The notes under the pieces: generated by a model
What the model was told of the DNA's origin: nothing
The model's input: the letters and a program-made list of their open reading frames with translations, nothing else
Databases searched by the model: none
Shown: positions 49,827-53,096 of the stretch, piece after piece
Numbering within the stretch: position 1 is the first letter of the stretch
How the letters are laid out: each line of letters begins with the position of its first letter
IMG/VR virus record: IMGVR_UViG_3300028797_000097
Source: a virus
Lineage: Duplodnaviria; Heunggongvirae; Uroviricota; Caudoviricetes
Strand: one strand, 5' to 3'
Length of the DNA: 64,000 nucleotides
Made by a program: the position numbers and the translations under genes

Positions 49827-50756
49827 ATGAGATATATTAAAGGGAGAAGTAATTTAAGTTGCACAATTTTTGTGCCATGGGATTGTAATAATCATTGCAA
49901 GTTCTGTACATCTAAGCAGATGTATAAACAAAGAACTTGTGATATTAATGCAATTCTTGCACAAATCAAAAAACTTAATGAAAATCCGTTAATTGAAGAA
50001 TTTGTATTAACAGGTGGAGAACCATTAGCAGATATTGAGAAATGTCAGATTCTTATTGACGCTATGGAGAAACCTGTTTATATCAATACTACATTCCCAA
50101 CATTTACAGATTTGCCTGGAACAGTAGAAATGTCTAAAGTCAAGACGTTAATCGATTTCATTAATAATAATGAAAAGATTGGTGGTTTGAATATTTCCAG
50201 ACATATGCATCAACAGTTTTATGAACCAGTTTTGCCAGTAGATATGTTTGCACATTTAATTAAGAAACATATTAAATTAAATGTAGTTCTTTCTAAGGAG
50301 TTTAATATAAACGAATTTAAAGCGTTTATAGAACCTTATAAAGAATTAGAAAATCTATCTATCTGTATTAGAGCAGATTATCGGAATATTACTAAAGATA
50401 ACTTAAAGAATCGTGACGATGTATTTGAAAAGTTAATTTTAGAATATGAATATGAAAGTTCTGGCGGATGTATGGTTTGTAATGACGATAGATTTTGGAA
50501 TAATAATTTATTAATCAGTTATCATCGTGGAATGGAACATTCTAAAGTAGTTTATGGTAATAAGATATTTGTAAATGATATTTTGATTACTATTGATGGA
50601 CAAGTTTATGATGACTGGGATTTAGTAACAAATACAGAATTTGAAAGATGGGTATTTGGCGAATATTTATTGACAGATGATATATCTGAATATGAAAATG
50701 ATCCAGTATATATTGATTGGTTATTGAAAAAGAATGGTGAAGAAGGTATATTATGA
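49827..50756 (+). CDS. Second radical-SAM enzyme (309 aa) with a C-terminal CxxC (possible auxiliary cluster)
   Basis: CTIFVPWDCNNHCKFC (CxxxCxxC), GGEPL and a C-terminal GGCMVCNDD. Confidence 0.7.
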   Translation: MRYIKGRSNLSCTIFVPWDCNNHCKFCTSKQMYKQRTCDINAILAQIKKLNENPLIEEFVLTGGEPLADIEKCQILIDAMEKPVYINTTFPTFTDLPGTVEMSKVKTLIDFINNNEKIGGLNISRHMHQQFYEPVLPVDMFAHLIKKHIKLNVVLSKEFNINEFKAFIEPYKELENLSICIRADYRNITKDNLKNRDDVFEKLILEYEYESSGGCMVCNDDRFWNNNLLISYHRGMEHSKVVYGNKIFVNDILITIDGQVYDDWDLVTNTEFERWVFGEYLLTDDISEYENDPVYIDWLLKKNGEEGIL

Positions 50757-50953
50757 CATTAACTGAATTACGACAAAAACTTAAAACCGCAGGTATGAAA
50801 CAACTTAAAATTACTGGTTGTGGTGGATATGTAGGATGTGGAACTGGTGGTTATTATGACTATGCCAATGCACATTTTGGAAATCCTCCACAATGGGTAT
50901 CGTATAGTTGCGGATTTTATATGAGATGTGGTGGTCCTACTACATGTGGTTAA
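50753..50953 (+). CDS. 66-aa Cys/Gly-rich peptide with the family N-terminal module, translationally coupled (ATGA) to the radical-SAM gene
   Basis: MTLTELRQKLKTAGMKQLKITGCGGYVGCGTGGYYDY...YSCGFYMRCGGPTTCG. Confidence 0.45.
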   Translation: MTLTELRQKLKTAGMKQLKITGCGGYVGCGTGGYYDYANAHFGNPPQWVSYSCGFYMRCGGPTTCG

Positions 50954-50993
50954 AAAGAAAGAGTCAAGAAAACCTTGACTCTTTTTATATTAT

Positions 50994-51605
50994 TTAAATT
51001 GATGGTTTAACATGTGTTATAGGCAGTCTAAGTAATTTATCTGGAAGTATATTTAATTTTGAAAGTAATGTATATGCGACTTCACGACTAATACCAGATT
51101 CATATAAAGTTTCAATTATTTCAACTGTTCTTATCTCGCTAGTTTTTATTTTACGTGCAAGTTTATAAATTTTAGTGAATTTAGAATAGTCATTACTTTC
51201 ATTTATATTAATTATAATTTTGCCAGTTTTAGGATTTTTATATTCTGCACAACCATAATATGAATTATATCCAGTAAATTCATATCTTTTATTTTTGACA
51301 ATAATAGTTGCTGGTGTTTCATCTTCATCATCGTCATAATAATAACTGCCACAACCGCTACTATGACAACTAGAAACATATCCGCAACCTACTCTGACAC
51401 TTCTGGATATTGTACCACATCCACCACCATAACTACTGCTACTACCACATCCAGAACTATAGCTGGAACCGCAACCACTGCTGCCGCACCCAGAACTATA
51501 ACTGCTGCTTCCGCTACAACCACCACTATAACTACCGCATTCATTAAGCCTACGAACAGTGTAGCCTTTATTTTTAAGTAATTCTCTTGCTTCTAATAAA
51601 TTCAT
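50994..51605 (-). CDS. N-terminal-module family protein with a Cys/Gly/Ser/Tyr low-complexity region
   Basis: MNLLEARELLKNKGYTVRRL followed by GGCSGSSSYSSGCGSSGCGSSYSSGCG. Confidence 0.5.
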   Translation of the reverse strand: MNLLEARELLKNKGYTVRRLNECGSYSGGCSGSSSYSSGCGSSGCGSSYSSGCGSSSSYGGGCGTISRSVRVGCGYVSSCHSSGCGSYYYDDDEDETPATIIVKNKRYEFTGYNSYYGCAEYKNPKTGKIIININESNDYSKFTKIYKLARKIKTSEIRTVEIIETLYESGISREVAYTLLSKLNILPDKLLRLPITHVKPSI

Positions 51606-51619
51606 AAATGCCCCTTACA

Positions 51620-51994
51620 TTAGAACAACCAGTCTAATTCTATCATTACTCCCCATTTACAATATCTAATAGTTACATCAAAGCCTCGTTCTTTTGCAAG
51701 TTTAAAGTATTTTTTAAATATTGTAGGATTATCTTCGTATTCTTTATCATGTACTATAATACCTGTACTACCTTCTTCATATTTAGCATGACCATATTTA
51801 ACATTTGATAATATAGCATCAAGGCCAACAAGTTTTGATTCTTCTGCAGTAAGTTCATTTTTTATTGCAGTAAATTCATCAAACAGTAATTTTTGTTTGT
51901 CAGAATCTAATTTTATTGGGGCTTCTTCAAGTTCTTCTTTAATAATAGCATAGCCATTATCTTTAAGTAATTCTGTTGCTTCTTGTAAGTTCAT
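51620..51994 (-). CDS. N-terminal-module family protein (124 aa)
   Basis: MNLQEATELLKDNGYAIIKE. Confidence 0.5.
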   Translation of the reverse strand: MNLQEATELLKDNGYAIIKEELEEAPIKLDSDKQKLLFDEFTAIKNELTAEESKLVGLDAILSNVKYGHAKYEEGSTGIIVHDKEYEDNPTIFKKYFKLAKERGFDVTIRYCKWGVMIELDWLF

Positions 51995-52007
51995 TTTAAA
52001 TCCTTTA

Positions 52008-52442
52008 TTAAAAATTATTTAAAAATGCATGCATTATTGCACCTTTTTGGTAAATAGCATTACATTCTTCATAAACTGCTTTTTTGCTTTTTAGTTTCTT
52101 AAAGTCTTCTTCAGTTAATGGATTAGGATCTTCAGATTTCCAACCTAATTCCCATGCTTCCTGTAGGTCTTTTTTAGGGGTATCATAGTCTTTGCAATAA
52201 CGTTTTAAAACAATTTCACCAATATCTTTACCGGTATCGTTCAATTCTTTTTCAGAGAGAATGGTATTTTGATAGCCTATTTGGACGGTATTCTGTGCCC
52301 AAGAAGAATTTATAAGTTTAGAACGATATGCTAGATAATCATCGGCACTATTAAAACGTATTTCAGATTCATTCATTACAGGTTTATCTATAACCTTGTA
52401 ATGATTTTCTTTTAATATAGATATAGCTTCTTTTAAGTTCAT
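52008..52442 (-). CDS. N-terminal-module family protein (144 aa)
   Basis: MNLKEAISILKENHYKVIDK. Confidence 0.5.
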   Translation of the reverse strand: MNLKEAISILKENHYKVIDKPVMNESEIRFNSADDYLAYRSKLINSSWAQNTVQIGYQNTILSEKELNDTGKDIGEIVLKRYCKDYDTPKKDLQEAWELGWKSEDPNPLTEEDFKKLKSKKAVYEECNAIYQKGAIMHAFLNNF

Positions 52443-52460
52443 AAGAGTATTCTTTAAATA

Positions 52461-53096
52461 TTAGAGTTCTTCGTTAATTCTATCAGCAGCATCTTGTGGA
52501 GCAATAAGACCTTGATTATAAAGGTCAGCAGCAATTTGCTTTGCCCTTGGTAAATCTTCATCATCGAGCATACCACCATCTTCCTGAGCTAAAGATAGAG
52601 CCTTAGCAATATAGTCTTCTTCAGCATTTGGAACCATAGTTTCGATTTCATCATCGTCAATCGGTGCAAATTCCATTTCATCAAAGAAAAGTTCAATCTT
52701 ACGGCCAGGTTTCTTTTCTTCTCTGACATAACCAAGTTCCTTAAGAACTTCAGACCATTGTGTATTTTTGTATGTTCTTAGGCGAGACTTTACAAAAGCA
52801 ATTTCACGTGGAGTCAAAACTTCACCATTCTGAACTTTTTCTGCTAATGGAGAAAGATAAGCAGCATCAGTTTGGTTAAAACCCCTATAATTACGTAAAA
52901 CGGTACGTCTACCTTGCTTTTCGAAATCTACCTGACGTCCATACATACCAATGAGAAGAACAATAACGAACTTATCATTTTCCAAATATTCCTTAATTCG
53001 CTGATTAAGCTGGAAATTTGATGTATAAACATCTTCCTTTATGATTTTATAACCGTGTTCTTTAATAACTTTAATAGCTTCTGCCATTTTTTTCAT
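52461..53096 (-). CDS. N-terminal-module family protein, variant (211 aa)
   Basis: MKKMAEAIKVIKEHGYKIIKED. Confidence 0.45.
   Translation of the reverse strand: MKKMAEAIKVIKEHGYKIIKEDVYTSNFQLNQRIKEYLENDKFVIVLLIGMYGRQVDFEKQGRRTVLRNYRGFNQTDAAYLSPLAEKVQNGEVLTPREIAFVKSRLRTYKNTQWSEVLKELGYVREEKKPGRKIELFFDEMEFAPIDDDEIETMVPNAEEDYIAKALSLAQEDGGMLDDEDLPRAKQIAADLYNQGLIAPQDAADRINEEL

Follow-up and report, generated by a model that had tools for sequence, protein, structure and literature searches.

Here, we propose that a short N-terminal module shared by five proteins with unrelated bodies, all encoded in a 64,000-nucleotide (nt) stretch of the Caudoviricetes virus record IMGVR_UViG_3300028797_000097 (the whole stretch is called the window below), may be a capsid-targeting sequence (CTS), a propeptide of the T4 kind, at work in a clade of uncultured T4-like phages. 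Judged from sequence, predicted structure and analogy, we give this proposal about an even chance of being correct. It is based on the module itself, its position at the N-terminus, its recurrent [L/I]-x-E ending, its association with late-promoter motifs, the placement of module genes beside protease and head genes in related phages, and the exchange of cargo cassettes behind it, all of which are directly observed. Together with the T4-like nature of the phage and an AlphaFold prediction that places the module outside the body, these observations give circumstantial support to the initial annotation of the window, which had suggested a T4-like capsid-targeting leader cleaved at L-x-E.

Five window proteins share an N-terminal module

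Five open reading frames (ORFs) of the window, named A, C, D, E and F, start with M-x-L-x-E-A-K-x-I-L-K-x-x-G-Y:

29351..30637 (+): protein A, 428 residues; 11.8 bits (E 0.014)
29351..29410 (+): module 1 of A, MNLSEARDILGKCGYSFLKE, which holds L-S-E|A and L-K-E|S
29804..29866 (+): module 2 of A, an internal relic, LKLKKALQFLAECGYTISKNTRIDE, with I-D-E kept
50994..51605 (-): protein C, 203 residues; module MNLLEARELLKNKGYTVRRLNE; 26.1 bits
51620..51994 (-): protein D, 124 residues; module MNLQEATELLKDNGYAIIKE; 31.1 bits (E 1e-8)
52008..52442 (-): protein E, 144 residues; module MNLKEAISILKENHY, then the spacer KVIDKPV, M-N-E and a helical body; 30.0 bits
52461..53096 (-): protein F, 211 residues; module MKKMAEAIKVIKEHGYKIIKE, shifted by one residue; 15.1 bits (E 1e-3)

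The scores are from an independent hidden Markov model (HMM), built from 130 modules on other contigs only, with homologues of the window proteins left out, and scored on the six-frame translation of the window (76,161 residues), where the best unrelated segment reached 4.6 bits. The initial annotation had described six members. Its shared N-terminal module stands for A, C, D, E and F, and its sixth member does not: ORF B fell outside the top 20 segments with this HMM, is without A6, Y15 and the terminal [LI]-x-E, and is therefore unsupported as a member. The N-termini given there for A and B had also been interchanged (MNLSEARDILGKCGY is that of A and MTLTELRQKLKTAGM that of B), and the strand had been overlooked, C, D, E and F all lying on the minus strand in one tight operon (F-E-D-C) that is read from 53096 down to 50994. 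A further apparent copy at the C-terminus of the ORF at 14995-15933 (-), seen with an HMM containing window sequences, scored 3 bits with the independent HMM and was rejected. Two features border the operon:

50753..50953 (+): ORF B, 66 residues, Cys/Gly/Tyr-rich, N-terminal sequence MTLTELRQKLKTAGM; a doubtful member
50956..50986 (no strand): hairpin resembling a bidirectional terminator, between the convergent genes B and C, which ends the F-E-D-C operon

The bodies behind the modules are unrelated, as the initial annotation had stated: Pfam and NCBIfam gave no matches for them, and residues 31-111 of F, which correspond to phrog_21015, are the sole PHROG match. In C, the module is followed by a Cys/Gly/Ser/Tyr-rich stretch, (C-G-S-S-Y)n, and then by a C-terminal domain. 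A codon alignment shows that the codons of the five window modules vary synonymously, so selection acts on the module peptide. On the same variation, and because upstream of the window modules only a Shine-Dalgarno sequence is conserved, we rejected a nucleic-acid element (DNA or RNA) at the start of these genes as the explanation.

Protein A carries the module twice. Module 1 (residues 1-20, ending GYSFLKE) is followed by a beta-rich cargo of about 130 residues, then by a degenerate module 2 (residues ~152-172, ending CGYTISKNTRIDE) and a helical cargo of 256 residues. On its own, module 2 scores ~4 bits with the independent HMM and has lost E5; E172 is invariant among orthologues and I-D-E|M is kept. 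Most relatives encode a 280-residue orthologue that begins at module 2 (MNLSESLKLLGNCGYTIK...LNEMSRASDR; MNLSESLKLLGNCGYTIKRAKLNEMSRASDR...), with the same synteny and no additional gene. By this orthology, and despite its low score, module 2 is a genuine copy, and A is a module and cargo cassette placed in frame before another module gene. The initial annotation had used the internal copy to argue for a folded module, an argument that falls away because fusion or insertion explains the copy.

A large family of leaders on unrelated proteins

When 1.84 billion representative proteins were searched exhaustively with the module profile, 302 matched at E<=1e-3 (representatives at 50% identity); the family of six in the initial annotation is in fact far larger. 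The match begins at residue 1 in 136 of the 150 best of these 302, and among the newly found representatives the module lies at residue 1 in 120 of 131 (~91%). Its consensus is M-[NKE]-L-[ND]-E-A-K-x-I-L-K-x-[NA]-G-Y-[IL]-[VLI]-E; in the 120 new representatives L3, E5, A6, L10 and G14 are conserved at 93% or more and Y15 at 89% (98% including Phe). The bodies have a median length of ~140 residues and a median isoelectric point of 4.9, and the residues directly after the module are often acidic and of low complexity across the family. The bodies are essentially without Pfam domains, the exceptions being an SLT lytic transglycosylase (in which a hydrophobic segment lies between module and SLT domain), a DnaJ-type zinc finger and a weak ParB-like match (one each). 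The module itself is without a model in Pfam, PHROGs and NCBIfam, and a word-index protein search with a 42-column module alignment yielded short fragments only.

Loci for the analysis of gene context were collected with a degenerate DNA pattern that encodes M-N-L-x-E-A-x-x-[ILVMF]-L-K-x-x-G-Y, giving 18 matching stretches from viral contigs, 92 from metagenomes and 39 from genomes. The set was pruned of the N-termini of Fur-family (Zur-like) proteins from Bacillaceae, one HicA and other cellular look-alikes, leaving 199 distinct phage-type module ORFs, of which 190 have Met at module position 1; being derived from the pattern, these loci are biased by it and are not independent samples. The module ORFs often form tandem arrays, and 186 of their bodies fall into 74 unrelated clusters. 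The search with the module as a profile, as suggested with the initial annotation, likewise finds the same leader before many other bodies among the 302 representatives. Rumen, goat gut and activated sludge are the main sources of the contigs, which reach 230-547 kb.

Two modules are present in one ORF in four further loci (L065 655-1611, L135 2777-3727, L103 1618-2832 and L152 5652-6545). Those of L065 stand back to back, MNLNEAKQILKDNGYIVE|MPLDEALEYLKENGYLYE|AEEDTEE..., from which the unit is read as 18 residues, Met to Glu; the other three resemble A in apparently joining two cargo cassettes in frame. The DNA pattern also retrieved a conserved protein of ~137 residues from Bacillaceae, starting MNLTEAIELLKERGYKQTGKRE... 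(genome contigs L122-L160), which, from its N-terminal sequence, is probably a Fur-family regulator of the Zur type. Contigs assigned to Methanobrevibacter metagenome-assembled genomes and carrying the phage genes F and E were retrieved as well, and probably represent phage contigs binned in error.

The module ends in [L/I]-x-E

Of the 120 new representatives with the module at residue 1, 119 contain a Glu within positions 17-27, and 111 of these 119 (93%) have L or I two residues ahead of that Glu. Val is found there in only 4 cases, although with 40 occurrences it is the most frequent residue at the following position. The ending Glu may fall at position 18, 19 or 20, so that its register relative to G-Y shifts while the [L/I]-x-E composition is kept, and a second sample of the family has the same ending in 61 of 69 members. 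Among the window proteins the ending is L-K-E|S in A, I-K-E|E in D, I-K-E|D in F and L-N-E|C in C; in E a spacer of variable length leads to M-N-E|S, with L-N-E in most of its orthologues (n=15), where N24 is invariant and E25 nearly so. Across the window families the spacer from G-Y to (L/M)-N-E or I-D-E differs in length as the motif stays constant. A second candidate site within the module is the near-invariant L3-x-E5|A6.

The prohead protease of T4, gp21, cuts after L/I-X-E, and a CTS of 10 residues is sufficient for packaging (PMC9026906). T4 propeptides are 10-20 residues long (PMC5694885), and propeptides often hold extra cleavage sites (PMC9026906; PMC5694885).

Late-promoter motifs are more frequent before module genes

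The sequence TATAAATA is the T4 late-promoter consensus. It occurs 27 times in the window, on both strands, and about 20 of the copies precede a gene start by 5-41 nt (for example at 2353, 3924, 9666, 12793, 24788, 29319, 39140, 53123 and 53158), a concentration which indicates that the window phage uses late promoters of the T4 type. Two copies precede module genes of the window:

29319..29326 (+): TATAAATA, 25 nt upstream of A
53116..53123 (-): TATAAATA, 20 nt upstream of F; probably the late promoter from which the F-E-D-C operon is read

In the collected loci the motif is found within 80 nt upstream of 67 of 164 module genes and of 115 of 596 other genes of the same loci (odds ratio 2.9, p 5e-8), and before module genes it stands mostly 15-27 nt from the ATG.

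Module genes lie beside head genes in related phages

The source of the window (G+C 32%) is a divergent T4-like myophage, which encodes UvsX-like, gp41-like and gp32-like proteins and a helicase, along with a gp15-like tail sheath stabiliser that is 27% identical to its counterparts in cyanophage and Vibrio T4-like phages.

The fetched loci were searched with T4 head proteins. Homologues of gp21 (E ~1e-27) adjoin module genes in three lineages (L015/L083, L024/L035/L109 and L037). In the first two, the gp21 gene and the module gene are divergent; in L037 the protease gene is followed by a module gene, and the cluster also holds genes for a gp22-like scaffold, a gp23 capsid and a further module protein. 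L070 shares with L037 this arrangement of scaffold and capsid genes with module genes inside the cluster, and the capsid N-terminus there reads ELLTE|D, against FLTE|A in T4. The gp21 gene of L015 lies at 2692-3387; in L037 the scaffold-like gene occupies 1811-2785 and the capsid gene 2880-4199. In a separate sample of 47 viral loci picked by gp21 alone, module genes directly flank the protease gene in L162-164, L188 and L186/187 (in L163 on either side of it), a module-like segment lies in the ORF immediately upstream of gp21 in L181-185, and module genes lie 1.5-3.4 kb from gp21 in L173-179. Loci of this sample whose gp21 is at most 45% identical to the query have no module genes. The gp15-like protein of the window phage is 49% identical to those of the gp21-adjacent module phages, compared with 27% to those of cultured T4-likes, which places the gp21-adjacent module phages in the clade of the window.

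Cargo is exchanged behind a conserved leader

A pair of these gp21-adjacent loci captures an exchange. L015 and L024 are 97% identical from gp21 across the intergenic region to codon 16 of the module gene; beyond this codon they are unrelated for 496 versus 231 bp (cargoes of 159 versus 89 residues), after which they are again 94% identical. In L188 this site is occupied by a third cargo. The window array is similarly fluid. Located between a fibre-like gene and B with its radical SAM gene, it reads F-E-D-C; in close relatives D is missing or replaced, and the arrays read F-E-C, F-E-hybrid-C', F-E only, F-E-X-C or F-E-X-Y. The hybrid in L004 is a protein of 152 residues with a C-like start on a D-like body. 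The internal-protein loci of T-even phages likewise encode diverse proteins with only a conserved CTS in common (PMC3012670).

Predicted structure and look-alike domains

The module is predicted by AlphaFold to form a helix over residues 3-12 and, around residue 17, a short strand. The helix of E is isolated, and the linker that follows (residues 20-27) has a predicted local distance difference test (pLDDT) score below 50; for A, pLDDT is below 50 in both modules, with a confident all-helical body from ~172, right after I-D-E172. The structural check suggested with the initial annotation, run here on the bodies of A and E, thus places the module outside the confident body in each model. A fold search with the E model against the PDB gave no match at E<=0.001.

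Several known domains resemble the module in part. Sub-threshold Pfam matches to PASTA (positions 7-34 of 64), Nif11 (28-45 of 48), UPF0180, PepSY and the Rok winged helix all sit on its helix-Gly-strand segment. PASTA (PF03793) was rejected, with only model positions 7-34 of ~64 aligning, on the module alone, and a single score at the gathering threshold (23.8 versus 23.2) without an individually significant stretch. Membership of Nif11 was rejected at 16-18 bits, below its gathering threshold of 23.8, and membership of the Fur family because the resemblance is confined to the module. HicA (PF07927) was likewise rejected: it has no Pfam match even at E<=1, the module proteins have no G-S-H, and the sequences after the module are unrelated between members. 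In sequence the module does resemble HicA, as noted in the initial annotation: the DNA pattern retrieved a genuine HicA (L117, MNFREAIAILKNKGYTLDRVKGSHHIF) with 21.5 bits. The resemblance is also generic, as Zur-like N-termini score equally well. The module is distinctive for its strictly N-terminal placement on hundreds of phage proteins that are otherwise unrelated, and not for its type of sequence.

A possible mechanism and its alternatives

If the module is a capsid-targeting propeptide, what might its course of action be? The leader would span residues 1 to ~18-25, as an amphipathic helix (M-x-L-x-E-A-K-x-I-L-K), G-Y, a short hydrophobic stretch and [L/I]-x-E. Module genes would be transcribed late, and the leader would dock the nascent protein on the scaffold or core of the assembling prohead. 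A prohead protease of the gp21 type would then cut after the Glu of the module-end [L/I]-x-E, and probably also after L3-x-E5|A6, so that the mature, mostly acidic cargo would be freed inside the head. There it would persist as part of the core or as an internal protein, and it may leave with the DNA on ejection. Protein A would be a polyprotein whose two cargoes are set free at two such sites. With only the leader constrained, cargo would be free to diverge, duplicate, fuse or be exchanged, giving rise to the hypervariable arrays. The docking, cleavage, packaging and ejection steps, and any anti-defence role, are inferred. A wider version of this proposal is that a portable capsid-targeting leader, not recognised before and unlike the T4 CTS in sequence, marks several hundred protein families that are packed into the head and delivered to the host by uncultured T4-like phages of rumen, gut and sludge, among them polyproteins whose two cargoes are separated by cleavage at internal leader relics, and Cys-rich cargo on which a phage radical SAM enzyme acts; this we hold only tentatively, with the balance of probability somewhat against it.

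Several points weigh against a capsid-targeting role. All members are known from sequence alone, and the module, which is about twice as long as the T4 CTS (MKTYQEFIAE), has no sequence similarity to it. Few lineages underlie the adjacency statistics, and the loci are not independent samples. Neither the 64-kb window nor its left flank yielded the window phage's own genes for prohead protease, scaffold and capsid, the leftward extension leading to baseplate genes just left of the window and to no head genes. A tblastn search of 50,697 cultured phage records with the module consensus gave no match, and a control query with the T4 CTS worked, retrieving T-even-type phages only; blastn of the locus against cultured phage records gave no match either. 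N-termini of HicA and of Fur-family (Zur-like) proteins score 21-28 bits with the module HMM, like real members, and G14-Y15 with the hydrophobic strand is a generic helix-Gly-strand unit, whose hydrophobic-x-E ending could simply be the end of a beta strand. Some members, such as the SLT protein, have a hydrophobic segment after the module, which also fits a membrane-anchored protein.

One alternative, unlikely in our view, is that the module is a retained helix-Gly-strand element with a structural or partner-binding role on proteins that are never processed, for instance a docking or oligomerisation motif for a partner outside the capsid interior (a fibre or baseplate adaptor, a chaperone or a membrane complex). 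Such an element would account for the generic alpha-Gly-beta character shared with HicA and Zur-like N-termini, for the sub-threshold PASTA, Nif11, UPF0180 and PepSY matches falling on the module itself, for conservation that extends through G14-Y15 and the strand, beyond the 10 residues of the T4 CTS, and for members that run directly into predicted beta strands or a hydrophobic segment; the fibre-like gene beside the window array could also be read this way. However, a start exactly at residue 1 in ~91% of occurrences would be unusual for a mobile folded domain, AlphaFold packs the module against neither of the bodies examined (A and E), and in many members the sequence directly after the module is acidic and of low complexity. 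The [L/I]-x-E ending also holds its composition despite the register shift, with Val excluded at P3 and common at P2, and in other lineages module genes cluster with gp21, scaffold and capsid genes and not with fibre genes. We consider it rather improbable that the module has no common function, the genes being tandem duplicates with rapidly diverging bodies, whose N-termini are kept alike by frequent recombination between paralogues or by selection on translation initiation in an AT-rich genome. The tandem arrays with their variation in copy number and hybrids such as the L004 protein, the recombination junction inside the module and the AT-rich codons would fit this; but the module is kept across phage lineages whose gp21 is only ~47-55% identical and across at least 300 clusters (50% identity) without detectable similarity of their bodies, its synonymous variation points to selection on peptide and not DNA, and translation efficiency would not demand that E5, A6, L10, G14, Y15 and [LI]-x-E be conserved at ~90% or more.

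The radical SAM gene beside the window array (49827-50756, +) brings in yet another explanation, to which we assign very little probability: that the module is a leader of the type found in ribosomally synthesised and post-translationally modified peptides (RiPPs), recognised by this enzyme for modification of the Cys/Gly-rich cores of B, C and possibly others. The gene is translationally coupled, through an ATGA overlap, to the Cys/Gly/Tyr-rich 66-residue ORF B, with which it occurs in 10 of 11 loci; C, with its Cys/Gly/Ser-rich stretch straight after the module, has C-like counterparts only alongside this pair, relatives of the L006 type having none of the three; and Nif11-like matches, though weak, fall on the module. 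Yet a radical SAM homologue is present in just 6 of 93 module-bearing loci, for which reason we rejected a radical SAM leader as a general explanation, and most members are acidic proteins of 100-400 residues without a Cys-rich core. B is unrecognised by the independent module HMM, and the Nif11 scores lie below the gathering threshold given above. Only the CxxxCxxC core of the radical SAM protein matches any known family, and no peptide-maturase family reaches threshold. The radical SAM gene with B looks like a phage-encoded, RiPP-like pair of maturase and precursor.

Relation to known systems

The module family is best described as a variant of the principle behind the T4 CTS and internal proteins. 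The T4 CTS (on IPI, IPII, IPIII, Alt and gp24, and cleaved by gp21) is likewise a short N-terminal leader on unrelated proteins of a T4-like phage. Both leaders end in L/I-x-E, the module genes look late-expressed, and their loci share with those of the T4 CTS a hyperplastic character, with cargo swapped behind a conserved leader and, in relatives, a location beside head-morphogenesis genes. In contrast to the T4 CTS, the module has 18-25 residues instead of 10, with a G-Y and strand element, and two candidate cleavage sites, L-x-E|A (positions 3-6) and [LI]-x-E (positions 16-20). It precedes at least 300 clusters of cargo, compared with a handful per T-even phage; this cargo is mostly acidic, and double-module or polyprotein forms occur. 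Packaging and cleavage are here proposed by analogy.

Other systems offer narrower parallels. The T4 core proteins gp67 and gp68 are small, acidic and encoded beside the prohead protease gene, and gp67 starts MEGLIEAIK (an N-terminal L-I-E-A) and ends in an acidic tail, but neither has detectable homology to the module proteins. In phage SPN3US, the paralogues gp53 and gp54 have an identical 15-residue N-terminus with cleavage motifs and diverged bodies (PMC5694885). The propeptides of phiKZ and SPN3US differ from the module in being mostly longer than 100 residues and in using A/S-x-E instead of L/I-x-E. The N-terminus of HicA (alpha1-beta1 of a dsRBD-like fold) has the same spacing, x-E-A-x-x-x-L-K-x-x-G-Y/W-x-hydrophobic; the module proteins differ in having neither G-S-H nor the conserved beta2-beta3-alpha2, and in bodies that are mutually unrelated. 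RiPP leaders of the Nif11 type are also conserved before hypervariable cargo, and in the window a radical SAM gene stands beside two Cys-rich ORFs, but the cargo of the module is ordinary acidic protein of 60-400 residues and most loci have no maturase.

The variable internal proteins of T4 with a common CTS include the injected anti-restriction protein IPI*, and the T4 leader has been used for packaging foreign proteins. If the capsid-targeting proposal is right, the module would be a sequence tag with which to list, from metagenomes, hundreds of candidate head-packaged and possibly injected proteins without a known domain, candidate anti-defence proteins among them. It would also provide a case for studying the exchange and fusion of leader and cargo cassettes, and a candidate targeting tag for capsid engineering. 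If the proposal is wrong, an N-terminal signal of ~20 residues on at least 300 unrelated phage proteins would still be an undescribed sorting or recognition signal.

Other features of the window

The large terminase subunit is apparently split: a TerL fragment of 306 residues (4926-5846, +) is preceded and overlapped by a homing-endonuclease-like ORF (3953-4960, +). NrdD and NrdG are encoded in the window, and two paralogous proteins of ~220 residues (48025-48684, + and 49152-49823, +) lie on either side of nrdG. Both match the Pfam Gp23 capsid model in its middle only (~185-318 of 376), and the 223-residue paralogue, the only one queried, has a phmmer match to the true capsid proteins of L037 and L070; from these matches the two appear to be truncated capsid-like proteins within the nucleotide-reductase operon. 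An SPFH/flotillin-like protein of 532 residues is encoded at 31208-32806 (+), two genes downstream of A, and a gene for a PQ-loop membrane protein (47690-48028, +) adjoins nrdD.

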